Below are positions 14,158-29,217 of a stretch of 33,127 bases of DNA, one piece after another. The stretch is from Leptolyngbyaceae cyanobacterium (GTDB taxonomy: Bacteria > Cyanobacteriota > Cyanobacteriia > CAKZMO01). Where the stretch lies: positions 1 through 33,127 of the forward strand of contig JAYKIC010000635.1 of assembly GCA_035284985.1 (NCBI GenBank). The letters are read 5' to 3'. The position numbers and the translations under genes were made by a program. How positions within the stretch are numbered: the stretch's first letter is position 1; each line of letters starts with the position of its first letter. Under the pieces are notes generated by a model, which saw only the letters and a program-made list of their open reading frames with translations, was not told the DNA's origin and ran no database searches.

Positions 14158-14161
14158 AGGG

Positions 14162-14203
14162 GTGAGTGGGTGAGTGAGTGGGTGAGTGAGTGAGTGAGTG
14201 AGT
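14162..14203. repeat. Tetranucleotide microsatellite (GTGA/GTGG, about 10.5 units) 5 nt upstream of the baseplate-J start codon
   Basis: GTGAGTGGGTGAGTGAGTGGGTGAGTGAGTGAGTGAGTGAGT is read directly; on the mRNA strand it is (CACT/CACC)n. Confidence 0.9.
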
Positions 14204-14227
14204 TCCTGATTCTCAGCATCTTGCTGG

Positions 14228-14348
14228 TACCTGTTTACTGGAGCCGAAAGACCCACCCCTAGCCCCTCCTTGGAGGGGAATAGACTCTAGTCTAGGTTGT
14301 CCATCAACTGCTATCTCCTCTCTAGAGAGGGGTTGGGGGTGTGTTAAT
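14228..14348. repeat. MITE-like dispersed element, copy 1 (about 120 bp, two internal hairpins)
   Basis: TACCTGTTTA...GACCCACCCCTAGCCCCTCCTTGGAGGGG...ATCAACTGCTA...CTCTAGAGAGGGGTTGGGGGTGTGTTAAT aligns along its length with 18041-18160 and, inverted, with 26481-26596. Confidence 0.8.
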
Positions 14349-14351
14349 GTG

Positions 14352-14376
14352 GGTGCCCAGTCTCTGGCTGGGCACC
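14352..14376. repeat. Perfect hairpin GGTGCCCAG-TCTCTGG-CTGGGCACC (same family as 16431-16486)
   Basis: The 9-bp stem is read directly. A near-identical unit occurs at 16431-16455. Confidence 0.8.
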
Positions 14377-14431
14377 AGTTACCAGTTATTGTTTACTCCC
14401 TAATGTCCTAACTCCAAAACGCCCCAATGCT

Positions 14432-14857
14432 TTAACTCTGGGTGGCATTGAGATAAAACGGATAAACGAGACTCCTGATATCATGACTATCCTTGGGATG
14501 GTAACGAATCACAATGTTGACTAATCCTCGTAGGGGGTCTGGTTCTGTTGCTACTTCATCTAAGACTATCCGAGGCTCCCACTTTTCTAGCGCTTCCTGC
14601 ACACAGAGCCGAATCATCAGTAGGGTCTGTCCATTCATCGGCGCGAAGACTAAATCGGATAACCGACAGCCAAAATTAGGCCGATAAACCCGTTCCCCCA
14701 CCCGCGTTTTCAAGATAATCCGAATTGATTCATCCAGATTATGGCCTCCAGCGGTTAGCTGAAAATTGCCCTGCACACTGAGGCGGACGGGAAATCCCAC
14801 TCCTTGACCCAGGGGACCGTGGTTCCCATTAGCAGCATTGGACAGCGGTTCTGGCAT
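14432..14857 (-). CDS. GPW/gp25-family baseplate wedge protein (Afp9/Cis9-like)
   Basis: 141 aa. SIRIILKTRVGERVYRPNFGCRLSDLVFAPMN is the hallmark gp25 core. Confidence 0.9.
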   Translation of the reverse strand: MPEPLSNAANGNHGPLGQGVGFPVRLSVQGNFQLTAGGHNLDESIRIILKTRVGERVYRPNFGCRLSDLVFAPMNGQTLLMIRLCVQEALEKWEPRIVLDEVATEPDPLRGLVNIVIRYHPKDSHDIRSLVYPFYLNATQS

Positions 14858-15061
14858 TGAATCATCTCCTTAGGCTATCGGGCGATCGGCGCGATGCCCT
14901 ACAGTTTACCGCTTTCCTCTGTATTTCTGGCGGAGAGCAAGAGTCTGTAATGTTGCTGTTACCGTTGTCGTTATCGTTTGCTTTGAGGTAAGGGGCGATC
15001 GCAAAAGACAGCCCTACTTAATGAGGACTATCCTTGCGGTTGGGGACGGGGGAGAGGAGTC

Positions 15062-16312
15062 TCAAGCCGCCTCTGTTACATCTTGTGATGGTTCCCCACG
15101 CCGATATTCATCCAAGCCTTGAGCTTCAATGGTTTTCCAGGTAGCGATCGCCTGCCCAAACTGAGCGTGAAGGAGTTCGAGATCATTGTGGAGGGCCGCT
15201 TCCAATTTTTGCGTTTCCATTGCAATCCAGTTTTCGATCCACTGCTTTTTCAACTGATCGGCTTGGGGTTTGCTCAATCCTTGGACATCAACATCAGGTT
15301 CGGGGCAACGGTCAGGTAAGCTTTCTAGCTCTGCTTGAAAGTGTTGTTTGCGTCCCGCGATCGCCTTGACCCCCAAGTCCTCAAAATCCGCAACTCTCTC
15401 CTGGGCGAAGTGGGCTTGAGTGAGACCCTGCGCCTGTTCTACGCTGCGGATATGGCGCGGAGGCCGGGGGTTAGCCACATACTGAAGACAGGCATCCAAT
15501 CGAACAAGGAGGAGGGCATCGAGAGCTGGGATGGTGTCACCAGGGATGTGAACCTCATAGCCAGGAATGAGTTCACCACAGGCTTCGGGAATCTCGAAGC
15601 GATCGCTTTGGACCTTTGCCACCAAGAGGTTGATGACAATGGGTATGGCCGCACTCGCCAAAGCCAGGGGAATGCCAGCGGGGAAGGAGACAATGAGCGC
15701 AATGATGCCTTCCGCAGTGATGGCAGCGATCGCCATAGCTTTTTCGGACTTGGGTTCTTCGGCCCAATATTGCGCCTCGACTTGCTGCACCAACTCCTTT
15801 TGACACTGATACTGATAGCGTTGGAAAACGGTAGGCTGCTCTAATTCATTGCATTCAGCCCGGAGTTGGGCAAGGGTCTGAAGGACGTTGTAGCGCATCC
15901 GTCGCCGCATGAGATAGCGGGTGGCATAGATATCGGTGAGGACGGCTGAGGCACCCCCGGCGATCGCCCCACCCGCAGCGGCAATGGGTCCGCGCCCGGT
16001 GGCCGAGACGAGGCCCATCGCACTACTGCCGACCACCAGTGCCCCAAAAATTCCCACGGCGGCGGTAATCAAGTGCTGGAGGGGGGCAGGCCAAGCGGAA
16101 CGCTCCACAATACCGAGTTGTTCGCATTGCTGGAGAGCAATGTGTGTGTGACTCATTTCTTCGATATAACCCTTGACCTTGCCGCGATCGTTTTCGCCGA
16201 GGCGCTGCTGGGTGACATCATCTGACAGTAGGAGCCACGCTCGAATCAAGCGAATGAACGTCTGATAGGGTAGGGGGAGATTATGAAATTTTTCTTGCAA
16301 TTTGTCGGACAT
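15062..16312 (-). CDS. Hypothetical membrane protein with glycine-zipper helices and a C-terminal coiled-coil region
   Basis: 416 aa. Two hydrophobic blocks are present: AAVGIFGALVVGSSAMGLVSATGRGPIAAAGGAIAGGASAV (Gly/Ala-zipper-like) and AIAAITAEGIIALIVSFPAGIPLALASAAIPIVINLLV. I recognised no family. Confidence 0.6.
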   Translation of the reverse strand: MSDKLQEKFHNLPLPYQTFIRLIRAWLLLSDDVTQQRLGENDRGKVKGYIEEMSHTHIALQQCEQLGIVERSAWPAPLQHLITAAVGIFGALVVGSSAMGLVSATGRGPIAAAGGAIAGGASAVLTDIYATRYLMRRRMRYNVLQTLAQLRAECNELEQPTVFQRYQYQCQKELVQQVEAQYWAEEPKSEKAMAIAAITAEGIIALIVSFPAGIPLALASAAIPIVINLLVAKVQSDRFEIPEACGELIPGYEVHIPGDTIPALDALLLVRLDACLQYVANPRPPRHIRSVEQAQGLTQAHFAQERVADFEDLGVKAIAGRKQHFQAELESLPDRCPEPDVDVQGLSKPQADQLKKQWIENWIAMETQKLEAALHNDLELLHAQFGQAIATWKTIEAQGLDEYRRGEPSQDVTEAA

Positions 16313-16360
16313 GGTTATTGTCTATCCTGTAGTGAATGTTGGTTAATCCGATTCCCTGTG

Positions 16361-16486
16361 TCCCAGCGTCTCGCTGGGATACTCCCAGAGGCTCTGCCTC
16401 AGAATTGTCTGGAGCCAGAGGCTCTGTTGGGGTGCCCAGTCTCCGGCTGGGCACCAGAGGCAAGTCTCCGGCTGGGCACCAGAGGC
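16361..16486. repeat. Array of GC-rich hairpins and short direct repeats in the intergenic space of the minus-strand cluster
   Basis: Hairpin CCCAGCG-TC-TCGCTGGG lies at 16361-16379. CCAGAGGC occurs four times. Hairpin GGTGCCCAGTCTCCGGCTGGGCACC lies at 16431-16455. GTCTCCGGCTGGGCACCAGAGGC is tandemly duplicated with a 25-nt period (16439-16461 and 16464-16486). Confidence 0.85.
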
Positions 16487-16501
16487 TAGACGGGAGCGGG
16501 A

Positions 16502-17260
16502 CTAGGATTGGGTTTGTCGGGCACGTTCAAAGGTTTGGCGGATGCAGCTTTGATGTTCGGCGACACTGCATATCCGGAGGTTGGGGTTCTGGGCACTGAG
16601 ATCATCTAACTCTTGGCGCAACGTTCCGGTAGGGCCAATGATTGTAACGTGTCCCTTCTGTTTGGTGATTTGGTTGATTTGGCTGCCCAGGATGGTGAAA
16701 TCAAGGGCAGGAAGACCGGGGCCAGGTTCAGCGGCTTGCAGCCAAATGATGGCAGCGATCGGGTAATCGTTTCCGGCGGTGCGTTGGATATCTATTTGGC
16801 AGAGAATGCGGTCCATTAAGACGATGGGAGAGGTTCCGGTGCCTTGGCCGACGGTATTGGGATGGGGCTGATTACTTTTAAAGACGTTACAGCGGGCGAA
16901 CAGTTGGGTAACGTTTTCCACTGCGCTGCTCCGGGTTGGTTCGGTGGTATCGGCAAAGAACAGGTCGATGGCGATGTCGTTGGGTTTGAGGCTCTGGGTC
17001 TGGTTGCGGCAGATGTGGTAGCCGATGGTGGGGTCAGCTAAGGCGGATTGGGAGACATCGCTGGCGAGGATGGCAATCACTTGCACGGTGCGGTACCACT
17101 CGATAATCGGGATGGCTCCAATGATGATGATCAAAGCAATGCCGAGCCAGAGTAGGGGCGATCGCCACAGTGGAGTCTGCTGGTTGGGGGTGGTTTGCCG
17201 TTGGGTGATTCGGCGGCGGCGGGAGCGGGAGCCAGGTGGAGCGAGGGTGGATTGACGCAT
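16502..17260 (-). CDS. Hypothetical N-terminally TM-anchored protein with a degenerate vWA-like alpha/beta domain
   Basis: 252 aa. An Arg-rich N-terminus and a TM helix (LLWLGIALIIIIGAIPII) come first. VIAILASDVSQS (DxSxS-like), GTGTS and AAIIWLQAAEPG follow in the order of vWA strands. The fold call is tentative. Confidence 0.5.
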   Translation of the reverse strand: MRQSTLAPPGSRSRRRRITQRQTTPNQQTPLWRSPLLWLGIALIIIIGAIPIIEWYRTVQVIAILASDVSQSALADPTIGYHICRNQTQSLKPNDIAIDLFFADTTEPTRSSAVENVTQLFARCNVFKSNQPHPNTVGQGTGTSPIVLMDRILCQIDIQRTAGNDYPIAAIIWLQAAEPGPGLPALDFTILGSQINQITKQKGHVTIIGPTGTLRQELDDLSAQNPNLRICSVAEHQSCIRQTFERARQTQS

Positions 17261-17276
17261 AAATTAAGTGTCCTGA

Positions 17277-17462
17277 TTAATTAGAAATGATAGGAGAGGG
17301 ATATTGCTGGTGGGTTGCTGGGGGGTGACTGAGCAGCAGTCCGAGACCGATGCCGAGGATGATTCCGGTGGTGCATCCTATCAGAAATAGGGAGAGGGGA
17401 GGGTGATGGGTGGCTGGAGGCGATCGCTCTTTCCTGGGATAACGATAATGTTGGCGGGTCAT
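17277..17462 (-). CDS. Small single-pass membrane peptide (61 aa)
   Basis: It is packed tightly between neighbours (16-nt and 30-nt gaps) on the same strand and has a central hydrophobic helix LSLFLIGCTTGIILGIGLGLLL. It could still be a spurious ORF. Confidence 0.4.
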   Translation of the reverse strand: MTRQHYRYPRKERSPPATHHPPLSLFLIGCTTGIILGIGLGLLLSHPPATHQQYPSPIISN

Positions 17463-17492
17463 GATGGTTGTGCTAAGTGTTGGGTCTATGGA

Positions 17493-17930
17493 TTAGTCGA
17501 GTTTGGATTGGAGGATGTGCTGGTGGGTGAGGCCAGGGGGCAAGTCCCGTCCGCCTTGGAGGTTGAGTAAGGGGTCCATGCTCTGAATCCGGGCACGTTC
17601 GATAATCTTGTGTTCCTTAGTAGGAAAGCAGGTGACGTAGAGGGCGCTGAGGGGGTTGCTGGAGATGGCCTGCTTTTGGGCCAGCAGTGCTTTAATTTGC
17701 TTGCTGCCGTTGCTGTGCTGGCGTAGGTGATTCTTCAGTCGATCGCGCATACTGCGTTTGGTGCGTCCGACATAGTGGATGTGGTAGCTATTGCTCCAAA
17801 ATCCGCTGGTGTAAGTGGCGATCGCATATACCCCCGATGTATCCAATGTCCTCGGTAGGTTGCTGGTATCGACTTCACCACGGGAGTTGACGGGGCATTT
17901 AATATACTTAGTCCAAGCCATTGGAGTCAT
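17493..17930 (-). CDS. GIY-YIG-like nuclease-domain protein
   Basis: 145 aa. GVYAI ... HYVGRTKRSMRDRLKNH ... KEHKIIERARI ... LLNLQGG follows the GIY-(10-11 aa)-YxG ... R ... E ... N order of the GIY-YIG superfamily. Confidence 0.6.
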   Translation of the reverse strand: MTPMAWTKYIKCPVNSRGEVDTSNLPRTLDTSGVYAIATYTSGFWSNSYHIHYVGRTKRSMRDRLKNHLRQHSNGSKQIKALLAQKQAISSNPLSALYVTCFPTKEHKIIERARIQSMDPLLNLQGGRDLPPGLTHQHILQSKLD

Positions 17931-18040
17931 TCCTTATTTTTGAAGGGATTAAACGATTAATAAAAAAGACAGCGCACAGCGTTTACGCCAGAGCGATCTT
18001 CAGAAAGATGGTGTTGTCCCCATTCCAGCGTTCAAAAGCG

Positions 18041-18182
18041 TACCTGTTTAGCGAGGCCGAAAGACCCACCCCTAGCCCCTCCTAGGAGGGGAAAAATGCT
18101 AGTCTAAATTGTTTATCAACTGCTAGCTCCCCTCTTGAGAGGGGTCGGGGGTGTGTTAATCACGTTGACGCTAAACACGTAC
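18041..18182. repeat. MITE-like dispersed element, copy 2 (longest copy)
   Basis: It is in the same orientation as copy 1. Its extension CACGTTGACGCTAAACACGTAC is shared only with inverted copy 3. Confidence 0.8.
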
Positions 18183-18207
18183 TCAAAAGCTGTATGTGTT
18201 TAGGCGT

Positions 18208-18432
18208 TTAGTCAGCGGTTTCCTCTTCTATCAGGCCATTGACGCTTTTACCCTTCTCGGTAACAAGGGGCAGTGGCATCGAATTGCCACTGGGTGCAAC
18301 GATCACTGGGAGAGGGGTATTGGGAAGGAACAATGCAGTCGTGCTCGATAACGCCCCGACCAGGTTAATCACGGTGATGATGGGTCCAGAGCGTTTGGCG
18401 ATCGCGTTCAAATGATTGCGAAGTAAGGACAT
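18208..18432 (-). CDS. Hypothetical small protein (74 aa), divergent from the VMAP-MoxR-vWA operon
   Basis: A strong Shine-Dalgarno sequence (AAGGAGG) lies 5 nt upstream of the ATG on the minus strand. I recognised no family. Confidence 0.5.
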   Translation of the reverse strand: MSLLRNHLNAIAKRSGPIITVINLVGALSSTTALFLPNTPLPVIVAPSGNSMPLPLVTEKGKSVNGLIEEETAD

Positions 18433-18591
18433 AGTGCCTCCTTAATGTCAGTAGGTTGTAATTAGGCCAATGGGATCACTTTCGCTTCGGTTACATCAGG
18501 AGATGTTGACCTCTCGTGTAACGTCTTTTGTGGAATGGTTTCCCGTTGCTCTATGTCAACTATCATGGAGGTTACAGGTGGGTGAAGTCAT

Positions 18592-18713
18592 CTGAGAATG
18601 GGGCAAAACCTCATGATCTTTTCTCAGGTATTTTCCTGAGTTTTGAATACTCCCCTGAGAACTCAGCCTCGTATAGAGGGATGACTGAGAATTGTGAGAA
18701 ACAGCCTGAGAAT
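18592..18713 (+). promoter_or_regulatory. Iterated CTGAGAA(T/C) octamers (candidate operator or iteron array) upstream of the VMAP-type gene
   Basis: CTGAGAAT occurs at 18592, 18685 and 18706, and CTGAGAAC at 18655. An inverted TTCTCAG lies at 18621, with partial CTGAG at 18636 and GTGAGAA at 18694. Spacings of 63, 30 and 21 nt approximate whole helical turns. Confidence 0.45.
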
Positions 18714-18751
18714 TTCCAGGTCGATGGTCATTGTGAGGCGGATTGAAGTGT

Positions 18752-20359
18752 ATGGGTTGCAACAGGCAGATGAATGTTCAGTCTTCTGAAATAAATAAGG
18801 AAGAAGCCCTAGAGATCCTTAAAAATTTGCTGGGAAATGAATGGAAAGATATTTATAACATAATTTTTGATGGAACTTGGGAGAACCTGATATATGAAGA
18901 CATAGCGAAGAAATATAATAGTTCTAGCAGCTATCTTGAGAATGAAGGTCCGGAATTTTTCAAGAAAGTTTCCGAGAAACTAAGAAAATGTGGTGTTGTT
19001 AGTGCGGAAAACGTAGATAGGAAGGTTAGGTTTTCCAAAAATATAGTTTCTTGCCTATGCCATTTACAGGCTATACGGGAACAGTCAAGCCAGGATAGTG
19101 TGCTGGGATGTAGAACTCAGGTTGAGCAACGAGTTGATGAGTTCTCTAGAGCGATCGCCACGAACCAGCACCAACGTAGCCAATCTGAAGCATTAAACGA
19201 CATAGGGATCTTGCTCCATGAGCCGGAGGTGGAGCAAATGTGTGGACTGGCATATCGCTTAGTGTTGATGAAGAAAGGAACCATCCGAACCCTGCCCAGT
19301 GTTCAGTTGAAGGCCGCAGAATGGGTAAGCCAGATTAGTCAGCTTGCTCTCGGCACCTCAAACTATAGTCCATTGGAACTGTTTGCGGGTTTTTTGCGGG
19401 TTGTGCTGAGGTTGCAAAATCAAGGGGAACGAGTTGTTGCCTTTGATCAGTGGGGGGAAACCCACTATCACGACACTTGGGTGACGATGACATCAGAATT
19501 AAATGATTACTATGTCCAATATTCGGAGCAGATACAGTCCGCGTTGTTGATTGTGTTGAGTGCTATCAACCAGCAATATGGTGTACGCGGATGGTTGATC
19601 TATGACATGGACAGATATCGGAAGTATCACGAATCGGCTCAACAGTTGATGGTAGAGGGGGTATCAATCGACAAAAGTTATCCTTTGGATGAAGCCTTAG
19701 CATTTGTGCCACGTTATCTGACGGAAGCGCTTAGGTGGTGTGTGGAGACCCCAGAGATTCATGTATTTGTCCCTGGACGTTTGGTGAATCATGCTTTTGA
19801 ACAATGTTCATTGCCAGAAGAACTACGATTGCTGTCAGAAATTGATGAGATTGTCGGGCATGATTATCCAGTTTTGGTGCGTATTGGCGATCGCTTGAAC
19901 AAAAATTATCGTTACTCAACCCAATGGCGCATCAAGGGAGAGGCTTATTTAGCAGAATGTAAAAATGGTAATACGTCTGGAAGCAGGCCAGTTTTTTTGA
20001 GGATGACACCCGATGCAACCCTGGATCGTCAGGCTGCCCAAAACGCGCTAGGTATAGAATTGCAGGGATTGTCTCAAACAGGTAGCACTGATAATTTCGT
20101 GTTTACATTAATGAAAAAAGGGCTACCCTTTGCGATCTGGGAGCGGGGAGCGATCGCCTCAGAAACCGCGACAGCCGAGATTGACTATCTGCTACAGCAG
20201 TGTTGTTTGCCACACCTGCCTAGAACAGTTCAGGAAGTACGGTGTGGTGCTGCTGTTCAACGAGATGGAGAACCGTATCAAATTCGGGATAGTGTGTCGT
20301 TGTTATGGGATGATCCATTTTTGGTGCCACCGAACGTATGGGAGAAGCCAGGACCATGA
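18752..20359 (+). CDS. VMAP-type (vWA-MoxR-associated) protein with an N-terminal HTH-like module
   Basis: The track ORF starts at a TTG (18743); ATGs at 18752 and 18770 are alternatives. The N-terminal segment WKDIYNIIFDGTWENLIYEDIAKKYNSSSSYLENEGPEFFKKVSEKL resembles the module found at the N-termini of cyanobacterial STAND and vWA-MoxR partner proteins. Its stop overlaps the MoxR start (ATGA). The family assignment is by recall and gene context. Confidence 0.6.
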   Translation: MGCNRQMNVQSSEINKEEALEILKNLLGNEWKDIYNIIFDGTWENLIYEDIAKKYNSSSSYLENEGPEFFKKVSEKLRKCGVVSAENVDRKVRFSKNIVSCLCHLQAIREQSSQDSVLGCRTQVEQRVDEFSRAIATNQHQRSQSEALNDIGILLHEPEVEQMCGLAYRLVLMKKGTIRTLPSVQLKAAEWVSQISQLALGTSNYSPLELFAGFLRVVLRLQNQGERVVAFDQWGETHYHDTWVTMTSELNDYYVQYSEQIQSALLIVLSAINQQYGVRGWLIYDMDRYRKYHESAQQLMVEGVSIDKSYPLDEALAFVPRYLTEALRWCVETPEIHVFVPGRLVNHAFEQCSLPEELRLLSEIDEIVGHDYPVLVRIGDRLNKNYRYSTQWRIKGEAYLAECKNGNTSGSRPVFLRMTPDATLDRQAAQNALGIELQGLSQTGSTDNFVFTLMKKGLPFAIWERGAIASETATAEIDYLLQQCCLPHLPRTVQEVRCGAAVQRDGEPYQIRDSVSLLWDDPFLVPPNVWEKPGP

Positions 20360-21441
20360 CAAATTCACAAGGTGACTGGAGAGTCTTTCATGGGGATAAT
20401 CGTGCGCCTCACGACGAGGTGACAGCGTTACCCTCTTCACCCAGTTGGCGACCGTTTGGTCGGGATATTCGTCCGGGAGTGAGTCGGAGAAAGCGGCGCG
20501 GGGAAACCTTTCAGGCCCGTGATGAAGAAATTTCAATGGTGAATGCGGCGCTGTATTTGCGGCGACCGTTGCTGATTACGGGAAAGCCCGGAACGGGAAA
20601 ATCATCCTTGGCGTATGCCGTAGCACGGGAGTTAAATCTAGGAGAAGTTTTATACTGGCCGATTACGACACGCACCACATTGCAGGATGGTTTGTACCGC
20701 TATGATGCGATTGGTCGGTTGCAGGCAGTGAAACAGCAGGAAGGTCAGCCGCCCATTCAGCCAGGGTCGGAAACGCAGAAAAGCCAGCCGCCCATTCAGC
20801 CAGAGTCGGAAACCATCGGTAAATACTTGACCCTGGGACCATTGGGAACGGCATTGTTGCCATCGGCGCGACCCCGTGTGCTGTTAGTAGACGAGATCGA
20901 TAAGAGCGACATTGATTTGCCCAATGATTTGCTGTCGATTTTTGAAGAAGGTCGGTTTGAGATTCCAGAGTTGGTGCGCTTGGAACCGGATGAAGCCTCT
21001 GATGCAGTGCCGATGTCGGTACGAGTCCGAACGGCTTATACCGATGAAGAAGAGGTGACAGCAGTGGAACGCTACACTAACATTCAAGGCGGGCGGGTCG
21101 CTTGCCAATCTTTTCCGCTGGTGATCTTAACCAGCAATGGCGAACGGGAATTTCCTCCCCCGTTTCTCCGCCGTTGCTTGCGACTGCAAATTCGGGAACC
21201 AGATAAGGACGATTTGGAACGAATTATTACGGCTCATTTGGGGGATGATGATGTGTCTATCGATGATGCGTCGGTTCAAACCTTAATTACTCGGTTTATT
21301 GAGGCACGGAAAAAAGGCGAGTTGGCCACAGATCAGTTGCTCAATGCGCTGTTTATGGTGACTCGTGGGCGGGAGTTGGTGGGGGATGATCGAGAACAAC
21401 TCATCCAACGGCTATTATCCTCTTTGGAAAGTGAGGGTTAG
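20356..21441 (+). CDS. MoxR-like AAA+ ATPase
   Basis: Walker A is LLITGKPGTGKSSLAYAVA and Walker B is VLLVDEIDKSDIDLPNDLL. LILTSNGEREFPPPFLRRC is the sensor and Arg region. I prefer the ATG at 20356 (4-nt ATGA overlap with the upstream stop) over 20338. Confidence 0.88.
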   Translation: MTNSQGDWRVFHGDNRAPHDEVTALPSSPSWRPFGRDIRPGVSRRKRRGETFQARDEEISMVNAALYLRRPLLITGKPGTGKSSLAYAVARELNLGEVLYWPITTRTTLQDGLYRYDAIGRLQAVKQQEGQPPIQPGSETQKSQPPIQPESETIGKYLTLGPLGTALLPSARPRVLLVDEIDKSDIDLPNDLLSIFEEGRFEIPELVRLEPDEASDAVPMSVRVRTAYTDEEEVTAVERYTNIQGGRVACQSFPLVILTSNGEREFPPPFLRRCLRLQIREPDKDDLERIITAHLGDDDVSIDDASVQTLITRFIEARKKGELATDQLLNALFMVTRGRELVGDDREQLIQRLLSSLESEG

Positions 21442-21444
21442 CCC

Positions 21445-24171
21445 ATGCTGGCGGATTTGCTGGCTATCTTCAAAGCCTCTGGTCTCCTGGGTGATGATGT
21501 TGGCGAGGAGGGGCAGCCTCAGACAATTCCCTTGTTGAATGACGAGGATATTTTGGATGCGTTGTGGTTGGCTTTGCAGTTGCCGTCTGGTCAGGCTGAT
21601 CTCCTGCAATCGCTGCCCACTCTGGCTCCAGAGACTGATGCTAGAAAAGTGTCTGAGGGACCAGAACCGATACCGTCTGGCTTTGATGACGCGAGTGACG
21701 TAGGATTGCCCGCCGCTAATGCATATTTAGAGTCTGGCCCAACAAAGTCTGATGGGGTCGATCCTGAATCGCTCAAGGACGAAGGCTTGCCGATCAAAGT
21801 ACAGGAGGCTCCGGCGTTGCGTGAGGCTCGTGATATTGGTCGGGCATTGCGGCCATTGCGTCGGAAGGTGCCGTCGCCCTCGCGTCAGATGATTGATGAG
21901 GCGGCGACGGTGGATCAGATTGCTCGACAAGATATTTGGGTACCCGTACTTCAACCTGCCTTGGAGCGATGGTTGGACCTAGAACTGGTGATTGAAGCAT
22001 CCCCCTTTAGTTTTATTTGGCAGTCTACCCTAAAGGACTTTCGTCACATTCTGGAGCGTCAAGGGGCGTTTCGCACCGTGCGGAGTTGGACCTTAAAACA
22101 GGGAAACGATGGTCCGCGCATCTGGCCTCGACATCAAGATTGGCAGTCTGGGTCGGGTCGGAGCTTGGATGAGCTGATCTCAGCCTCTGGGCGTAGTGTG
22201 ATTATGGTGGTGAGTGACTGTCGATCGCCCTTATGGTCAGGGGAAGTGTGGGAATCGACAGATACGGCATCGCCCCCTATGGACTGGTATGGGTGGTTAC
22301 ATCGTTTGAGTCACAAAATGCCGACAGCCGTTGTGCAGTTGTTGCCGGAGTGGTTGTGGCCGGAGAGTGCGCTTGATCTGGGCTATGGGCTGAGCGTTCA
22401 TGCTCGATCCCGTGGTGTGCCCAATTCCCGGTTGGTGATGGATGATGTGCCCCTTTGGGAGCGGGTTGAGGCTCCCCATGCCTTGTTACTCCCGGTGATG
22501 CCGTTGTTGGCCTCGGCGTTAAAACAGTGGGCACAGGTGATTGCCGGACGGAGTGACTATCAAGCCTCGGCCCGGTTATTTGATCGTGCCTGGGTGGGCG
22601 ATCCTCATCGGCCTCGGCGGTCGGGGTCTCGCTTTGGAGTGGAAGCGTCGGCAGCAGAACGGGTGGAGTACTTTTTTGCGACGGCTTCTCCCTTGGCCCA
22701 ACGATTAGCGATGATGATGGCGGTGGTTCCGGTGGACTTGTCTGTGGTGCATTTGATTCAAGAGACTCTGTTGCCAGAATCTAATTATGTCCATGTGGCC
22801 GAGGTTTACAGTAGTGGGCTGTTGGCTTCAATGGCTTCGTCTGATAGACCTGTCCGAAAATTGGGGTGGAGTACCGCAGCGGGTACTCCACCCCAATTTT
22901 CGGACGACTCTGATGGGGATCGGGATGGGGGAGAGGATGGGAGGCATTATGCTTTTGTGCCCGGAGTGAGAGAGATATTAAATCAGTTAACCTCCGTGGA
23001 GGATGCGAAGGCGGTATTACATGAGTTATCCCAGGCCATTGCTGCTCGTTTGGGTTTGCCCCCGATCAAGCATTTTTCCGCGTTGTTGTTGCCTCAAAAG
23101 GAGTGGGACCAAGCTCAACAGGATGCCATTCTACCGTTTGCTCGGATTACGACTGGAGTGTTGTACCAGTTGGGGGGGGATTTTGCGGCATTAGCAGATG
23201 TGGTAGTAGAAGGGGTGAATGAGTGGGTGATGGACTCTGATCTGTTTGCAAGATTTCCACCGTTGCAACCTTTGGAGTTTGACACGGTTCAGCTACAGAT
23301 CCAAATCCCCACTACAGATATTGGTGCGGCTACACCAGCGGTTCAAACGATTGACTTTGAATATGTCACCTTGGAGCAGCAGCAACAGCGTTGGGTTGCT
23401 GTGCGTCATCCCGCTCAAGCCCGACGGTACGTGGAACCCCTGACCAATAATGTGGGTTTAGAGATGGTGTTGATTCCGGCTGGTACCTTCATCATGGGTG
23501 AAGGAAGTCAGGAGCATGAAGTGTCCGTGTCAGCGTTTTACATGGGCAAATACACGATTACCCAATCTCAATGGAAAGTGGTAGCAGCAATGGATGCGGT
23601 GAATCAAAAGTTGGACGCTGATCCCTCCCGCTTCAAAGGCGATAATTTACCCGTAGAGAGCGTGTCTTGGAATGATGCCGTAGAATTCTGCCAGCGGTTG
23701 TCTCGCTATACGGAGCACGAATATCGTCTCCCTAGTGAAGCCGAATGGGAATATGCCTGTCGAGCCGGAACCACGACGGCCTTTCATTTTGGTGAAACGG
23801 TTACAACGGATGTGGCTAACTACAATGGCAATTACACCTATAACAATGGACCTAAAGGTAGATATCGAGAAAAGACGATCGCTGTCGGTAGCTTAAATGC
23901 TCCTAATGCATTTGGGTTGCACGATATGCACGGAAACGTGTGGGAGTGGTGTGAGGATGACGATCATGCTAGTTATGCCAATCCCCCAACCGATGGCAGT
24001 GCTTGGGTCGATACTCCTCGTGGAAGCTCCCGTATCCTACGCGGCGGGTCTTGGGGCTTCGATCCTGATTATTGTCGTTCCGCGTATCGTGACGATCGAA
24101 CTCCCGGCAATCGCAACCTCAACATTGGTTTTCGTGTTGTTGTCTCCGCCCCAGGACTCAGTAGCTCTTAG
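21445..24171 (+). CDS. Multidomain protein: N-terminal helical module, vWA-like domain and C-terminal FGE-sulfatase (FGS, C-type-lectin fold) domain
   Basis: 908 aa, starting 3 nt after the MoxR stop. The vWA-like strands WLDLELVIEASPFSFIW (MIDAS Asp replaced by Glu) and SVIMVVSDCRSPLW are present. The C-terminal domain shows MVLIPAGTFIMG ... RLPSEAEWEYACRAG ... LHDMHGNVWEWC ... LRGGSW ... CRSAYR ... IGFRVV, the FGE-sulfatase signature. Confidence 0.85.
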   Translation: MLADLLAIFKASGLLGDDVGEEGQPQTIPLLNDEDILDALWLALQLPSGQADLLQSLPTLAPETDARKVSEGPEPIPSGFDDASDVGLPAANAYLESGPTKSDGVDPESLKDEGLPIKVQEAPALREARDIGRALRPLRRKVPSPSRQMIDEAATVDQIARQDIWVPVLQPALERWLDLELVIEASPFSFIWQSTLKDFRHILERQGAFRTVRSWTLKQGNDGPRIWPRHQDWQSGSGRSLDELISASGRSVIMVVSDCRSPLWSGEVWESTDTASPPMDWYGWLHRLSHKMPTAVVQLLPEWLWPESALDLGYGLSVHARSRGVPNSRLVMDDVPLWERVEAPHALLLPVMPLLASALKQWAQVIAGRSDYQASARLFDRAWVGDPHRPRRSGSRFGVEASAAERVEYFFATASPLAQRLAMMMAVVPVDLSVVHLIQETLLPESNYVHVAEVYSSGLLASMASSDRPVRKLGWSTAAGTPPQFSDDSDGDRDGGEDGRHYAFVPGVREILNQLTSVEDAKAVLHELSQAIAARLGLPPIKHFSALLLPQKEWDQAQQDAILPFARITTGVLYQLGGDFAALADVVVEGVNEWVMDSDLFARFPPLQPLEFDTVQLQIQIPTTDIGAATPAVQTIDFEYVTLEQQQQRWVAVRHPAQARRYVEPLTNNVGLEMVLIPAGTFIMGEGSQEHEVSVSAFYMGKYTITQSQWKVVAAMDAVNQKLDADPSRFKGDNLPVESVSWNDAVEFCQRLSRYTEHEYRLPSEAEWEYACRAGTTTAFHFGETVTTDVANYNGNYTYNNGPKGRYREKTIAVGSLNAPNAFGLHDMHGNVWEWCEDDDHASYANPPTDGSAWVDTPRGSSRILRGGSWGFDPDYCRSAYRDDRTPGNRNLNIGFRVVVSAPGLSSS

Positions 24172-24211
24172 TACTCTTGTTCTCTTTCTTTCCGTCTATC
24201 TGCCTCTTGTC

Positions 24212-24282
24212 CCCCTCCTCGGAGGGGTTAGGGGTGGGTCACAATCGTCCCCCCACCGCTCGTGTGTCCCCCCTGCTTTTGG
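24212..24282. repeat. 71-bp direct repeat, left copy, flanking the DUF559 gene
   Basis: It matches 24783-24853 at 70 of 71 positions (a single A/C difference) and contains the CCCCTCC-TCG-GAGGGG hairpin. Confidence 0.9.
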
Positions 24283-24317
24283 GAACACTAGAGCAGCACC
24301 TATTCACTCTTTTTTCT

Positions 24318-24740
24318 ATGCCTTATCCCATCATTCCCTACAATCCAAAGCTGAAAGAACGTGCCCGACAACTGCGTAAAAACATGACCGCAGGGGAGCG
24401 AAAACTATGGCAACATCTCAAGGGCAAGCAAATGATGGGCTATGATTTCGATCGCCAACGCCCCATTGACCAATTTATTGTGGATTTCTATTGCAAATCT
24501 CTCATGCTGGCGATCGAGATTGATGGTTCCTCCCATGATAGTGCTGAAGCTCAAGAGCGCGATCGTATCCGTCAATCCCGAATTGAGTCTTTTGGTGTAC
24601 AGTTTTTAAGATTCCAAGATCGGGAGGTGCTCCATCAAACGGATCAGGTGCTCACGGCGATTCAGCAATGGATTGAGTCTCGATGTTCAAAGGTGGAGCA
24701 GAACCCACCCCCTGCCCCTCCCCAGAGGGGTGTTGATTGA
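24318..24740 (+). CDS. DUF559 (Vsr-like endonuclease fold) domain protein
   Basis: MPYPIIPYNPKLKERARQLRKNMTAGERKLWQHLKGKQMMGYDFDRQRPIDQFIVDFYC ... LAIEIDGSSHD ... RDRIRQSRIESFGVQFLRF is a classic DUF559 sequence. I chose the ATG at 24318 because the upstream part of the track ORF lies in repeat DNA. The C-terminal tail reads into a repeat unit. Confidence 0.85.
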   Translation: MPYPIIPYNPKLKERARQLRKNMTAGERKLWQHLKGKQMMGYDFDRQRPIDQFIVDFYCKSLMLAIEIDGSSHDSAEAQERDRIRQSRIESFGVQFLRFQDREVLHQTDQVLTAIQQWIESRCSKVEQNPPPAPPQRGVD

Positions 24741-25035
24741 TTTGTAGGTGTTGGAAGTTGTGTGTATGGTCAGTCTCCGGTTCCCCTCCTCGGAGGGGTT
24801 AGGGGTGGGTCACAATCGTCCCCCCCCCGCTCGTGTGTCCCCCCTGCTTTTGGTGTGGCATTTGACCCACCCCCTGCCCCTCCAAGGAGGGGTGTTGGTT
24901 GATTTGTGGGTGTTGGAAGTTGTGTGTATGGTCAGTCTCCGGTTCCCCTCCTTGGAGGGGCTAGGGGTGGGTCATCTTTCGTGTGTTGAGCAAGCAGAAC
25001 CCACCCCCTGCCCCTCCCCAGAGGGGTGTTTTGGT
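24700..25035. repeat. Tandem array of about 130-165-bp composite repeat units (includes the right 71-bp direct repeat at 24783-24853)
   Basis: ACCCACCCCCTGCCCCTCC..GAGGGGTGTTG.TTGATTTGT.GGTGTTGGAAGTTGTGTGTATGGTCAGTCTCCGGTTCCCCTCCT.GGAGGGG.TAGGGGTGGGTCA starts at 24703 and 24866, and partially again at 24999. Confidence 0.85.
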
Positions 25036-25104
25036 CAACCCCGAAAACTTTCCGTATTTTTCTGAGATAGGGGAGGTGATGTTTTACCGTAAATGATGGG
25101 ATAG

Positions 25105-25269
25105 GCAGATAAACGCGGCGGGTCTTGGAACAACAATCCTGATAATTGTCGTTCCGCGTATCGTAACAATCAAACTCCCGACAATCGCAACAACAACATT
25201 GGTTTTCGTGTTGTTGTCTCCGCCCCTTCGCGTCAGCGTCTCCGGCAGGAGAAACACTCTTCCGTTTAA
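25105..25269 (+). pseudogene. Orphan 3' fragment of an FGE-sulfatase (FGS) domain gene
   Basis: A frame opening just after a TAG at 25102-25104 reads [39 protein letters not shown]. That is the last approximately 39 codons of the FGS domain as found at the ends of 21445-24171 and 25501-26316. It has no start codon and no upstream domain. Confidence 0.8.
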
Positions 25270-25500
25270 GGTGAAGAGCCTTTGGCCAGAACTGGCAGGT
25301 GGGAATCTGTCAGGCGTGCAAGTGAAGAGTCCAGCCCTATTCCAGTGATGACATGACTTTACCCACCTCTGACTCCTCCCAGGAGGAGAATAAGTGGGGA
25401 GAGGATGTGTGATCCAAATATCAACCGGAGCCAGGGGTCTTGGTAGGATTATCCGAAGAGTTGTCTGGCTCCACCCCTTATTTAAGCGAACGCACCCCTC

Positions 25501-26316
25501 ATGGCTGAACTCACGCTGGTTCCCGAACGGAAACGGACTCAATACTATGTGGAAGACCTGGGCGGAGGCATCACGATGGATATGGTGTTGATTCCGGCTG
25601 GGACGTTTATGATGGGGTCTCCAGAGGATGAGCGAGACCAATCCGATGAAGGTCCACAGCATGAAGTTACTCTCCCGCAATTCTTTATGGGCCGCTACCC
25701 CGTGACGCAGGCCCAATGGAAACAGGTTGCTGGGATGCCAGAGGTGAATCAACGCTTAGAGGCTGATCCCTCTGAGTTTAAGGGTGATACCCATCCGGTT
25801 GAGCGAGTCAGTTGGCATGATGCAGTGGAGTTTTGTGCCCGTCTCTACCAGCATACGAATCGAAACTATCGTTTGCCGAGTGAGGCTGAGTGGGAATATG
25901 CCTGCCGAGCTGGAACCGAAACCCCATTTTATTTTGGTCCGACCATCTCTACTGACTTAGCCAATTACGATGGTGACTACACGTATGGGGATGGCCCCAA
26001 AGGTGAATATCGAAAGCGAACCACCCCTGTAGACCATTTTCGCTATGCCAATGCCTTTGGCTTGCATGATATGCATGGCAACGTCTGGGAGTGGTGTGCG
26101 GATCACTGGCATTCAAATTATGAAGAGGCACCGACAGATGGAAGTGCCTGGATCGAAGGCAGAGACAGCGATCGGACAGTTATACGCGGCGGGTCTTGGC
26201 TCTTCAATCCGGCTGCTTGTCGTTCCGCGTATCGTAACGATCGTATTCCCGCCCATCGCTACTACGACATCGGTTTCCGTGTTGTTGTCTCCGCCCCAGG
26301 ACTCCGTAGCCCTTAG
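25501..26316 (+). CDS. Stand-alone FGE-sulfatase (FGS) domain protein
   Basis: 271 aa. MVLIPAGTFMMGSPEDE ... RLPSEAEWEYACRAG ... LHDMHGNVWEWC ... IRGGSW ... CRSAYRNDR ... [12 protein letters not shown]. It aligns along its whole length (many identical blocks, roughly two thirds by eye) with the C-terminal domain of the 908-aa protein. Confidence 0.88.
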   Translation: MAELTLVPERKRTQYYVEDLGGGITMDMVLIPAGTFMMGSPEDERDQSDEGPQHEVTLPQFFMGRYPVTQAQWKQVAGMPEVNQRLEADPSEFKGDTHPVERVSWHDAVEFCARLYQHTNRNYRLPSEAEWEYACRAGTETPFYFGPTISTDLANYDGDYTYGDGPKGEYRKRTTPVDHFRYANAFGLHDMHGNVWEWCADHWHSNYEEAPTDGSAWIEGRDSDRTVIRGGSWLFNPAACRSAYRNDRIPAHRYYDIGFRVVVSAPGLRSP

Positions 26317-26384
26317 TACTCTTGTTCTTTTTCTTTCCGCCTTCCGCCTCTTTATTATTTTTCTGTAGAAATTTAGAGTTGGGG

Positions 26385-26660
26385 GTTGGGGATTGTGACC
26401 CACCCCTAGCCCCTCCCAGGAGGGGAAGTGGGAGTGGGGAAGTGGGGAGTGGGGATTGTGACCCACCCCTAGCCCTCCTTGTATGTGTTTAGCGTCAACA
26501 TTAGTAACACACCCCCGACCCCTCTCAAGAGGGGAGCTAGCAGTTGATAAATACCTCAAACTAGAATTTATCCCCCTCCTGGGAGGGGAAATGGGAGTGG
26601 GGAAGTGGGGATTGTGACCCACCCCTAGCCCCTCCCAGGAGGGGAAGTGGGAGGGGCTAG
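26385..26660. repeat. Composite repeat cluster: 46-bp direct repeats bracketing an inverted MITE-like copy 3
   Basis: GGGGATTGTGACCCACCCCTAGCCCCTCCCAGGAGGGGAAGTGGGAG occurs at 26388-26433 and 26607-26652, with a truncated copy at 26449-26478. Positions 26481-26596 are the reverse complement of 18080-18182. GGGGA(A)GT heptamer runs are also present. Confidence 0.85.
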
Positions 26661-26783
26661 GGGCGCGATCGCCCCTCTGCCTTAGCGATTATCCCCCCGA
26701 AAAGATAGGTCAGTGTGGGGGAAAGAAGAGGGCGATCGCCTTTTCCTTACACGATTTTAGGGGGCGATCGCCATCACAAACCC

Positions 26784-27209
26784 CTATCCTTCTTGCTCTT
26801 TTTTCTGTTTTTCCTCTAACTCTTTCTGCTTTTCCTCCGATTCCTTCTTCATCGCATCCATCTGAGCCTGTACCGCTGGCGGCGGCGGCACCGGAGTGCC
26901 CATATCGCCAACCAAAACATTGGGCTGTCCCTTCACAATCGTTGTGGCGACGGGGATCGGTACTCCTAGGGGACCAATGGTCAGACCATTAACCATCGAT
27001 GTGATCCGTGCGGCGGGTCGTCCACCAATCAAAACCGTAAATGCGCCCGTGGAGATAATGCCAGGGGCGTAGTTGATCACTGGACCGTAGACCATATCCC
27101 CAACACAGGCAGCGGGCATTCCCCCAATTAACACATTGGGTGTACCGGGTGGCAAGACATTATCTCCGGTAGCGGTGATATCAGTGACTCGTGCGGCTGG
27201 AAACGTCAT
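26784..27209 (-). CDS. PAAR-domain spike-tip protein with a charged K/E-rich C-terminal tail
   Basis: 141 aa with three PAAR-type motifs (FPAARVTD, GGMPAACVGD, GGRPAARITS). It lies immediately downstream of the VgrG-like gene. Confidence 0.9.
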   Translation of the reverse strand: MTFPAARVTDITATGDNVLPPGTPNVLIGGMPAACVGDMVYGPVINYAPGIISTGAFTVLIGGRPAARITSMVNGLTIGPLGVPIPVATTIVKGQPNVLVGDMGTPVPPPPAVQAQMDAMKKESEEKQKELEEKQKKEQEG

Positions 27210-27304
27210 CGATCGCTCTTCCTTTCAATCACACCTAGTTTCATAGTTCTATCGTACTTCTAGCTTAATTCTGGTCTGGGGTTCCGTTCTGTGTAAAAGT
27301 AGGC

Positions 27305-29200: not shown

Positions 29201-29217
29201 CGCAACACTGACTCCAT

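Follow-up and report, generated by a model that had tools for sequence, protein, structure and literature searches.

The ternary operon

What does a closely packed cyanobacterial operon encoding a VMAP protein, a MoxR-type ATPase and a vWA-FGS fusion do, and which of its products would sense and which would act? We addressed this question for a locus on a 33-kb contig from a Leptolyngbyaceae MAG, the whole stretch of 33,127 nucleotides being hereafter called the window. ORF calling returned three intact genes on the plus strand, listed here with a small divergent ORF on the minus strand:

18208..18432, minus strand: small divergent ORF of the ORF list, 74 aa, one hydrophobic helix, AAGGAGG Shine-Dalgarno sequence
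18743-20359, plus strand: VMAP ORF in its longest form, 538 aa from a TTG
18770..20359, plus strand: VMAP gene in its likely form, 529 aa from ATG, with a VMAP-C match
20356..21441, plus strand (ORF also from 20338): MoxR-type AAA+ ATPase, 361 aa, AAA_5, Walker A and B
21445..24171, plus strand: vWA-like (SAV_2336 N-terminal) and FGS fusion, 908 aa, first target of a diversity-generating retroelement (DGR)

The VMAP stop codon TGA (20357-20359) overlaps the MoxR ATG at 20356 in '...ccATGAca...', which yields an ATGA overlap at 20356-20359; the MoxR stop TAG (21439-21441) is followed by 'ccc' and the ATG at 21445, leaving a 3-nt gap. The sequence features read by the original prediction are all confirmed. 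Overlaps of 4 nt between genes are also present in L001, L002, L004 and L005, close packing thus being kept among relatives. The order VMAP-MoxR-vWA-FGS, with one or two FGS genes after it, is found in L001, L002, L004, L005, L006 and L020, and the trio recurs in this order in other filamentous cyanobacteria, as the original prediction required. The VMAP protein likely starts at the ATG at 18770, which is kept in the L001 homologue; the public annotation of the gene is shortened to 419 aa. Whether the divergent 74-aa ORF belongs to the VMAP system is uncertain. L001 has a small hydrophobic ORF at the equivalent position, its similarity to the 74-aa ORF not being significant.

Profile searches agree with the proposed domain assignments. 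Pfam VMAP-C matches aa 278-525 of the first protein (E 2.6e-22, 80 bits against a cut-off of 27), the relationship that had been anticipated for this gene, and this match, together with the synteny, identifies the locus as a VMAP / MoxR / vWA-FGS ternary system. The second protein matches AAA_5 with 39.4 bits (cut-off 22), has a weak bpMoxR match and contains Walker A (GKPGTGKS) and Walker B (LLVDEIDK) motifs, as expected of a MoxR-like ATPase. In the third, NCBIfam SAV_2336_NTERM covers aa 33-464 (382 bits, cut-off 200). No Pfam or PDB profile matched a vWA domain; the AF2 model has a vWA-like beta-alpha topology at aa 178-320, and a vWA-like domain is suggested by this predicted topology and by the motif position only. 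The MIDAS-like motif, LELVIEASPFSFIW, was originally read as degenerate, with Glu in place of Asp. The Glu is indeed there (E184), but it is invariant in 31 family sequences and consequently does not reflect local degeneration.

The FGS domain is a target of a diversity-generating retroelement

The C-terminal part of the third protein carries a complete FGE-sulfatase domain, as first reported (Pfam, aa 673-899, E 3.1e-50). The original prediction overlooked that this domain is targeted by a DGR, the template repeat (TR) and a second variable gene of which lie nearby:

24038..24152, plus strand: VR1, DGR variable region, about 115 nt at the end of the FGS domain, codons 865-903 of the vWA-FGS gene
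24318..24740, plus strand: DUF559 endonuclease-like gene (Pfam DUF559, E 3.7e-32)
25112..25226, plus strand: TR, non-coding DGR template repeat, 1 kb downstream of VR1, with adenine-specific mismatches to both variable regions
25283..25350, plus strand: conserved segment 3' of TR, 81% identical over 69 nt to L006 and 79% to L005
25501..26316, plus strand: stand-alone FGS gene (FGS2), second DGR target, 271 aa (Pfam FGE-sulfatase, E 4.6e-60)
26183..26297, plus strand: VR2, DGR variable region inside the stand-alone FGS gene

VR1, TR and VR2 form a three-copy repeat family. VR1 differs from TR at 13 positions, all of them (13/13) TR adenines, while VR2 shows 20 mismatches, 16 of which fall at TR adenines and 4 at other bases; differences between VR1 and VR2 are scattered across all bases. 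Both variable regions share a 3' tail of about 45 nt that is absent from TR. Read in register, TR contains 10 AAY codons, and stops are impossible at its variable codons, a boundary AAA codon excepted. TR is 76-79% identical to those of L005 and L006. In L006 an intact RT lies beside a TR and a 3' flank conserved with this locus, and in L005 an equivalent TR/VR layout adjoins an internally deleted RT. The segment 3' of TR is presumably part of the DGR RNA. This sequence pattern shows 16-17 codons at the C-terminal face of the FGS domain to be rewritten from TR by adenine-specific mutagenic retrohoming, which allows about 1e15 variants, and the stand-alone FGS gene to be diversified from the same TR. 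Since VR1 departs from TR at adenines only, retrohoming is more recent than any point-mutation drift. Stand-alone FGS genes also lie 3' of the vWA-FGS gene in L002, L004, L005 and L006.

In structure, the FGS part most resembles PvdO, FGE and the DGR variable protein TvpA (PDB 2y3c). The residue aligned with FGE Cys336 is F872, a variable position, and the Cys341 equivalent alone is kept; with one of the two catalytic cysteines absent, the domain is predicted to be a binding module and no enzyme. [quoted passage not shown] The operon might otherwise encode a housekeeping MoxR-vWA chaperone pair maturing a metalloenzyme, the FGS domain being a real formylglycine-generating or sulfoxide-synthase-type enzyme. 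MoxR-vWA pairs such as RavA-ViaA are known chaperones (Kaur et al. 2020, PMC7159879), the vWA-FGS protein is publicly annotated as 'formylglycine-generating enzyme family protein', and PvdO and EgtB models match below threshold. We consider this reading highly improbable, because the lost catalytic position is hypervariable, all equivalog scores are far under their cut-offs, a DGR template is present, VMAP-C partners are confined to conflict systems (PMC7159879) and no sulfatase or pathway genes were found nearby.

Loss of the reverse transcriptase

No RT or Avd gene was detected on the contig, nor any remnant even at E<50. In relatives, as judged by comparison with the L006 layout, Avd and RT occupy the slot filled here by the DUF559 gene, which is flanked by 84-nt direct repeats and by hairpin repeats (repeat families D4 and D7), six CCCCTC-N4-GAGGGG hairpins lying between 24212 and 25026. 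Relatives form a decay series: the L005 RT carries a deletion, L004 retains an RT fragment and L002, L007, L031 and L042 are without RT. Avd and RT have thus been lost from this copy, the DUF559 gene and hairpin repeats taking their place, and diversification is now either frozen or served by an RT gene at another place in the genome.

The same observations could denote a decaying relic, on an island full of repeats and selfish endonuclease genes, whose operon is non-functional or encodes a binding protein of fixed specificity. The missing remnants, the occupied slot, the graded decay in relatives and the four non-adenine changes of VR2 all fit such a relic. Against it, the three ORFs and FGS2 are neither disrupted nor shortened compared with their homologues, catalytic and family-invariant residues are kept, the adenine-only mismatches of VR1 point to recent retrohoming, TR and its 3' flank are conserved, and remote targets served in trans are common in cyanobacteria (76/121 DGR-diversified genes). 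Decay to a relic is therefore doubtful.

The VMAP protein and its leader

An HTH-type module forms the N-terminus of the VMAP protein (about aa 1-100), followed by a helical middle region and the VMAP-C domain. Over its whole length the protein shares 45% identity with P0002, in which PF26355 HTH_VMAP-M9 and VMAP-C are both present; the HTH-type identity of the N-terminus is suggested by this precomputed Pfam label on the homologue. In an exhaustive search the module was found elsewhere only in P0002 and P0147, the latter a STAND NTPase, which bears out the suggestion of an HTH-like module of a kind shared with STAND proteins. The window holds no second copy of the module, and consequently no partner effector was found by this means. 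A PDB profile search with the VMAP protein gave nothing significant, and its predicted structure has a pLDDT of 35. VMAP output modules in most relatives are a peptidase, TIR or EAD adaptor. This rare N-terminal module, without an enzymatic effector, is one unusual trait of the locus; a conserved leader is the other:

18545..18745, plus strand: conserved non-coding leader or promoter region with CTGAGAA heptamers, aligned with the L001 leader

Five CTGAGAA heptamers occur in it (18592+, 18621-, 18655+, 18685+ and 18706+), plus a GTGAGAA at 18694. Its alignment with positions 420-640 of L001, the one other VMAP locus of the HTH type, is far better than that of the proteins of the two loci. Among 104 sequences (1.72 Mb in all), at least 4 CTGAGAA copies within 200 nt were found in these two loci only. 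The leader has no Rfam match.

An island in a contractile injection system cluster

The system is carried by an island delimited by blastn against a close relative, L087:

14916..26905, no strand assigned: 12-kb island carrying the system

The island occupies the spacer between PAAR and gp25 in a contractile injection system (CIS) cluster encoded on the minus strand. Such a location raises the question of whether the operon is a CIS accessory, encoding, for example, a targeting or tail-fibre-like protein diversified by the DGR or a factor that regulates or loads CIS cargo, in a variable slot after VgrG and PAAR. In other genomes the PAAR-gp25 slot does hold variable inserts of 1-8 kb, phage tail-fibre tips are classical DGR targets (Kaur et al. 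2020, PMC7159879), and in L066 one TIR-FGS gene is separated by about 9 kb from genes for the CIS baseplate. However, PAAR and gp25 are 170 bp apart in L087 (blastn), without the island; island genes were found in none of 17 other CIS loci and CIS genes in none of 12 ternary-system loci. The operon moreover runs on the strand opposite to the CIS genes, and FGS2-type genes accompany ternary systems with no CIS nearby. A CIS function is thus very unlikely; from these comparisons the link is not conserved and the placement appears to be an incidental insertion.

Proposed function

MoxR AAA+ ATPases classically use ATP to remodel vWA partners. We propose, with a probability slightly above one half (about 0.55), that this is a VMAP ternary conflict system diversified by a DGR and working by a sensor-relay mechanism. 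The variable FGS surface would be an antigen-receptor-like sensor of an invader-derived ligand, whose binding the vWA domain would pass on to the MoxR ATPase, which would then release or activate the VMAP protein. As only an HTH-type N-terminal module is present on this VMAP, its output would most likely be regulatory (DNA binding or partner recruitment), and not directly toxic. A sensor/relay model for such systems was put forward by Doré et al. 2024 (PMC10907252).

Kaur et al. 2020 (PMC7159879) assigned the roles in reverse: the VMAP would sense the invader, MoxR would activate the complex, and the vWA-tethered hypervariable FGS would be a non-enzymatic effector neutralizing invader molecules. 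These authors take FGS, binding invader molecules directly, to be the primary effector in cyanobacterial VMAP systems, and describe VMAP middle regions as highly variable (PMC7159879); no other candidate effector was found at the locus by profile searches or by the search of the window for the N-terminal module. A module of about 1e15 variants nevertheless suits recognition more than execution, and most related VMAPs carry classical output domains (e.g., TIR, caspase, trypsin, EAD9), which places the VMAP on the output side. Doré et al. 2024 (PMC10907252) likewise argue for the sensor role of the variable protein. The reversed assignment is possible, albeit unlikely, and we retain the sensor-relay reading.

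Comparison with known systems

The architecture has already been described by Kaur et al. 2020, Doré et al. 2024 and a 2025 Nostoc punctiforme study, and this copy is fairly ordinary. Approximately 80% of cyanobacterial VMAP systems are DGR-linked (Kaur et al. 2020, PMC7159879), and MoxR, vWA and DGR target are co-expressed, with adenine hypermutation, at the homologous N. punctiforme locus (mBio 2025, PMC12691664). The novelty first attributed to an "uncharacterised" system was accordingly overstated, but no phenotype has been reported for any member.

As in the VMAP ternary systems of Kaur et al. (vWA-MoxR subsystem 1; PMC7159879), a single operon encodes a VMAP-C-containing VMAP, a MoxR AAA+ ATPase and a vWA protein whose C-terminal module is variable, and FGS is the typical, usually DGR-linked, module of their cyanobacterial representatives (PMC7159879). 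This locus differs by its HTH-type VMAP N-terminus, instead of a peptidase, second-messenger enzyme or neighbour-paired EAD, by having no adjacent effector gene, and by the first MIDAS acidic residue, which is Glu instead of Asp throughout the family.

Multiple targets per TR are shared with Npun_F4885-F4892 (PMC12691664) and the clade 5E DGRs (PMC10907252; Vallota-Eastman et al. 2020, PMC7517822). Those loci encode Avd and RT themselves and usually have a partner of the CHAT, TIR or trypsin type, whereas the TR examined here has neither RT nor Avd within 33 kb, nor such a partner.

Thiohalocapsa DGR8-type loci (PMC10907252) also encode a MoxR ATPase upstream of a CLec DGR target, and their third component, an HTH protein standing in for the VMAP, suggests a non-peptidase output. 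There the HTH protein is a separate gene without VMAP-C and the target lacks vWA, while in this locus VMAP-C is fused to the HTH-type module and a vWA-like domain is present in the target.

Classical MoxR-vWA pairs (RavA-ViaA, CbbQ-CbbO, midasin) similarly have a MoxR/AAA_5 ATPase encoded beside a vWA partner that is presumably remodelled, but they mature or remodel specific enzymes and involve no VMAP, hypervariable domain or retroelement.

Finally, Treponema denticola TvpA (PDB 2y3c), a top match of the FGS in structure and sequence, and Bordetella phage Mtd share its FGE-type C-type-lectin fold and have their variable residues within its C-terminal segment. Whereas TvpA is a lipoprotein of the cell surface and Mtd forms the tip of a phage tail fibre, the fold is joined in this locus to a cytoplasmic vWA domain and is encoded in an ATPase-coupled operon.

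Three translationally coupled genes

Translation of the window, an entire 33,127-bp NCBI contig from a Leptolyngbyaceae MAG, yields the three ORFs of the original prediction, packed as described there. The TGA stop of the first gene (20357-20359) overlaps the ATG of the second at 20356, within ccATGAca, and the TAG of the second gene (21439-21441) is followed by 'ccc' and then by the start of the third gene at 21445. The Walker A (GKPGTGKS), Walker B (LLVDEIDK) and LELVIEASPFSFIW strand motifs were likewise all found in the translations. The public annotation starts gene 1 110-120 codons too late. Since the alignment with its homologue P0002 begins at residue 21 of the 538-aa ORF and the ATG at 18770 is kept in the homologous locus L001, the gene 1 product is most likely a 529-aa protein. 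The trio is also syntenic elsewhere: nine compared loci (L001-L007, L009 and L020) combine VMAP-C, MoxR and the vWA N-terminal domain, with gene order and 4-nt overlaps conserved among these relatives.

The VMAP identity proposed for gene 1 was borne out by Pfam PF20028 (VMAP-C), which matches aa 278-525 with full profile coverage (E 2.6e-22; 80.3 bits against a cut-off of 27). This domain is confined to VMAP ternary systems (Kaur et al. 2020, PMC7159879). An exhaustive HMMER scan of 1.84 billion representatives retrieved 216 VMAP relatives in total, of which the nearest beyond P0002 are typical VMAPs, in which an EAD9, TIR, caspase, trypsin or CHAT N-terminus precedes VMAP-M1 and VMAP-C. No relatives were found by a locus search with the VMAP alignment, and a plasmid search returned remote trypsin-type VMAPs only. 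The N-terminus of the window protein bears neither a peptidase, nor a second-messenger-generating domain, nor an EAD duplicated on an adjacent effector gene; such N-termini are typical of VMAPs but do not strictly define them, 71 architectures being listed by Kaur et al. (2020, PMC7159879).

The HTH-like nature ascribed to this N-terminus found partial support. No Pfam domain was found in aa 1-277, and in the exhaustive scan the module (residues 11-109) was found solely in P0002 and in P0147, where it precedes a STAND/NB-ARC P-loop. A Pfam family HTH_VMAP-M9 (PF26355) exists and labels P0002; the label comes from the precomputed annotation of P0002, the family being absent from the Pfam set used for the window proteins. 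The HTH assignment follows this label; a profile search of the PDB with the module gave insignificant matches only, and BLAST against the HTH-labelled region of P0111 was negative. The AlphaFold (AF2) model of the VMAP has a pLDDT of 35, and no second copy of the module was found anywhere in the window.

Gene 2 matches AAA_5 of the MoxR/dynein group (39.4 bits against a cut-off of 22) and, weakly, bpMoxR, and retains both Walker motifs; its profile matches thus indicate a MoxR-clade AAA+ ATPase of the same operon. Assignment to the 'MadB family ATPase' was rejected, the NCBIfam score being 60 bits against a cut-off of 475, with no lead in the literature. Within the gene, a tandem 39-nt duplication (20736-20813, 90% identical) gives two copies of the 13-aa segment Q-x-S-Q-P-P-I-Q-P-x-S-E-T, located between the two Walker motifs; the MoxR protein of L001 has a single, shorter copy.

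Gene 3 combines an N-terminal part matching NCBIfam SAV_2336_NTERM (382 bits), a model whose name states no fold, with an FGE-sulfatase (FGS) domain. In an AF2 model built from 31 homologues (pLDDT 68.6, core 75-90), strands and helices succeed one another across residues 178-320 as in a vWA domain: beta1 (178-184) ends in E184 and beta4 (251-257) is followed by D258, both residues being invariant in the 31 homologues. The vWA domains of VMAP systems are described as six-stranded Rossmannoid folds whose strands 1 and 4 end in acidic residues, in proteins that carry a variable C-terminal module (Kaur et al. 2020, PMC7159879). The vWA-like strands originally proposed therefore fit in predicted topology and in the positions of E184 and D258, but they are not detected by profiles: Pfam vWA models did not match gene 3 at E<=10, a PDB profile search gave no match, and comparison with a genuine vWA domain by hhalign gave a negative result. 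Modeling is thus consistent with a vWA domain in gene 3 but does not prove it. The Glu in place of Asp, first read as a degenerate MIDAS, is a family trait rather than a local defect, E184 being invariant.

The FGS domain as a retroelement target

The original prediction overlooked that the FGS domain is the target of a diversity-generating retroelement (DGR). A repeat search revealed three copies of 115-160 nt, one a template repeat (TR) and two variable regions (VRs):

24038-24152, plus strand, VR1, repeat copy at the 3' end of the vWA-FGS gene
25112-25226, plus strand, TR, intergenic repeat copy
26183-26297, plus strand, VR2, repeat copy at the 3' end of a stand-alone FGS gene (25501-26316)

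DGRs are recognized by more than 80% of TR/VR mismatches falling at template adenines and by a VR at the 3' end of the target ORF. All 13 mismatches between TR and VR1, and 16 of the 20 between TR and VR2, fall at the adenines that make up 29 of the 115 TR nucleotides, while as an internal control the differences between VR1 and VR2 are spread across all four bases. Both VRs stop 19 nt ahead of the stop codon of their target gene. By this near-repeat criterion, the three copies are a DGR template with its targets. Since VR1 differs from TR at adenines only, the latest retrohoming event there is younger than any ordinary point mutation.

Read in the VR frame, TR holds 10 AAY (Asn) codons among 16-17 mutable codons, where no stop can arise except at the boundary AAA codon, and could encode about 1e15-1e16 protein variants. 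TR/VR homology stops at ...TCTCCGCCCC, beyond which a tail of about 45 nt is common to both VRs and absent from TR, as expected of a homing boundary. No stable hairpin or cruciform structure was found 3' of the VRs.

Catalytic FGE relies on two copper-binding cysteines, Cys336 and Cys341 in the human enzyme. In our alignment to human FGE, Cys336 corresponds to F872, a DGR-variable position, and the Cys341 equivalent, C877, is the sole catalytic cysteine kept in the FGS domain. Structural comparison places TvpA (2y3c), a DGR variable protein, among the best matches of the domain. Taken together, the adenine-specific variation, the loss of Cys336 and the match to TvpA indicate that the FGS domain is a predicted hypervariable binding surface, not an enzyme.

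An incomplete diversifier

DGR-type reverse transcriptases (RTs) are defined by YxDD and [IV]GxxxSQ motifs, and neither a YxDD nor an SQ motif was found in any frame of the 33-kb contig. Searching the window by tblastn with the RT and the accessory variability determinant (Avd) of the intact relative L006 gave nothing at E<50, and no window ORF matched the bAvd Pfam family, although Avd is present in both L005 and L006. Without RT and Avd, the locus is not a complete DGR but either a TR-plus-targets remnant or a module dependent on diversification in trans. In cyanobacteria, DGRs commonly serve remote targets in trans (Vallota-Eastman et al. 2020, PMC7517822). Pattern scans of the genome contigs found no further copies of the TR or the leader, and a metagenome pattern scan gave a single match, in the compared locus L103, by chance.

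The gene order in L006 is VMAP, MoxR, vWA-FGS(VR), FGS(VR), Avd, RT, TR and FGS(VR). The interval between VR1 and TR in the window instead contains, where Avd and RT should be, a small endonuclease-like DUF559 gene (24318-24740, plus strand) bracketed by 84-nt direct repeats (24199-24282 and 24770-24853), together with six CCCCTC-N4-GAGGGG hairpins. L005 and L006 have conserved counterparts of the TR and of a 68-nt stretch 3' to it. All decay stages of the diversifier are represented among the relatives.

State of the diversifier in homologous loci
TR plus intact RT: L006, L020
TR plus internally deleted RT: L005
RT fragment only: L004
Neither RT nor TR within 10 kb: L002, L007, L031, L042

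The RT of L005 (13065-13524), a relative in a 7-Mb genome, joins residues 5-95 to 294-359 and so misses its catalytic core; this locus keeps bAvd and TR, and both of its VRs differ from TR almost solely at adenines. The window copy documents one decay state, with TR and targets kept and RT and Avd lost, and so is relevant to the question of how long a receptor of this kind remains of use after its diversification has stopped.

An island within a contractile injection cluster

The operon lies in a 12-kb island (about 14916-26905) that interrupts a minus-strand contractile injection system (CIS) cluster in the order tube, VgrG, PAAR, island, gp25, Baseplate_J. The cluster, made up of CIS_tube, VgrG, PAAR, gp25 and Baseplate_J and split by the island into two parts (11944-14857 and 26784-29754, both minus strand), is partial, and no CIS sheath gene was found on the contig. 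A functional tie between operon and CIS was rejected, and their association is incidental: in L087, a close relative without the island (80-82% nucleotide identity), PAAR and gp25 are 170 bp apart, none of 17 other CIS loci carries island genes, and none of 12 ternary-system loci carries CIS genes. Several genomes vary in what lies between VgrG/PAAR and gp25, relatives having inserts of 0.2-8 kb there. The sole other case seen of FGS near a CIS, a TIR-FGS fusion gene about 9 kb from Tail_P2_I and Baseplate_J in Adonisia turfae (L066, 9491-10690 and 19374-20681), is probably coincidental.

At 26784-26905, the PAAR ORF has a 40-aa C-terminal tail, Pro-rich then Lys/Glu-rich, which is absent from the 102-aa PAAR of L087. 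As the tail starts exactly at the island junction, the insertion would have replaced the stop codon. The CCCCTC-N4-GAGGGG hairpin occurs in 13 copies, against zero expected by chance; the copies are at 14263, 18076-18144, 24212-25026 and 26410-26644, and the 12 within the island cluster at module junctions. These repeats may have mediated rearrangements.

Besides the operon and its DGR parts, the island holds two genes without family match (15062-16312 and 16502-17260, minus strand), a small endonuclease-like GIY-YIG_2 gene (17493-17930, minus strand) and a small divergent ORF. Genes of the GIY-YIG_2 and DUF559 types are often selfish or mobile. One of the unmatched products, of 416 aa, has Gly/Ala-rich hydrophobic stretches; the other, of 252 aa, has a transmembrane helix at its N-terminus and, after it, the MIDAS-like DxSxS motif ILASDVSQS, and may therefore be vWA-like. 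Outside the island (309-2060, plus strand), a gene encodes a 583-aa protein in which RTX calcium-binding repeats come after an integrin-beta-type vWA domain (E 1.3e-30); this protein seems to have no connection with the operon.

A conserved leader

Over the 200 nt 5' of the VMAP gene, conservation with L001, the other locus with an HTH-type VMAP, is striking, though the proteins are only 45% identical. Five CTGAGAA heptamers lie within about 120 nt of the window leader and four in that of L001; among the 104 sequences scanned (1.72 Mb), no other exceeds three per 200 nt. The leader had no Rfam match, and promoter and terminator scans gave sites no more numerous than in shuffled sequence. From the two sequences compared, this region could be either a structured leader or the operator on which the HTH-type module acts. 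Across it, divergent from the VMAP operon, is an unannotated 74-aa ORF (18208-18432, minus strand) with a strong AAGGAGG Shine-Dalgarno and one hydrophobic helix; no similarity was detected to the small hydrophobic ORF at the same place in L001.

Predicted mechanism and relation to known systems

Domain identities, operon packing, synteny, the TR/VR relation and the loss of a catalytic residue are read from the sequence. Building on them, the variable FGS face would recognize an invader ligand, the vWA domain would couple this recognition to the MoxR ATPase, and MoxR would remodel the complex so that VMAP is released or activated. Such an FGS-sensing relay is the model of Doré et al. (2024, PMC10907252). 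Kaur et al. (2020, PMC7159879) proposed instead that VMAP senses and FGS executes, and reported FGS as almost exclusive to cyanobacterial VMAP systems, the primary effector there and about 80% DGR-linked. The classical output domains on related VMAPs lead us to favor FGS sensing as in Doré et al. Because the window VMAP has only an HTH-type module and no paired effector, the output of this system is probably regulatory.

A more specific version, to which we give roughly one chance in eight, is that in this rare subtype the hypervariable, retroelement-written receptor is wired to a transcription factor and not to a suicide effector. The vWA-FGS protein would capture its ligand, MoxR would release VMAP, and the HTH of the released VMAP would bind the conserved CTGAGAA array that separates the operon from the divergent gene for a small membrane protein, and so switch expression. 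If so, an antibody-like sensor would drive a transcriptional rather than an abortive response.

PADLOC 2.0 gave P-loop-level matches only to the components (e.g., IetA, E 5e-6 over about 35 residues) and none to the vWA-FGS protein. No phenotype, trigger or output of any VMAP ternary system is reported in the literature searched. MoxR/vWA/CLec DGR targets and loci with an HTH gene replacing VMAP were described by Doré et al. (2024, PMC10907252), and co-expression and adenine hypermutation were reported for a Nostoc punctiforme locus (2025, PMC12691664). The window locus is hence a member of a known, computationally defined kind, and its distinctive traits, namely a VMAP of the rare HTH type, the lack of an effector, a template without RT and insertion in a CIS cluster, are minor. 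It adds little to the catalogue but is unusually stripped down, consisting of three proteins that include an HTH-type module as output but no effector enzyme, and this trio with its conserved repeat leader, which could be an operator, makes a compact candidate for reconstitution. Among bacteria, nothing comes closer to a somatically diversified antigen receptor joined to an ATP-driven switch than the VMAP ternary systems whose lectin domains are diversified by DGRs.
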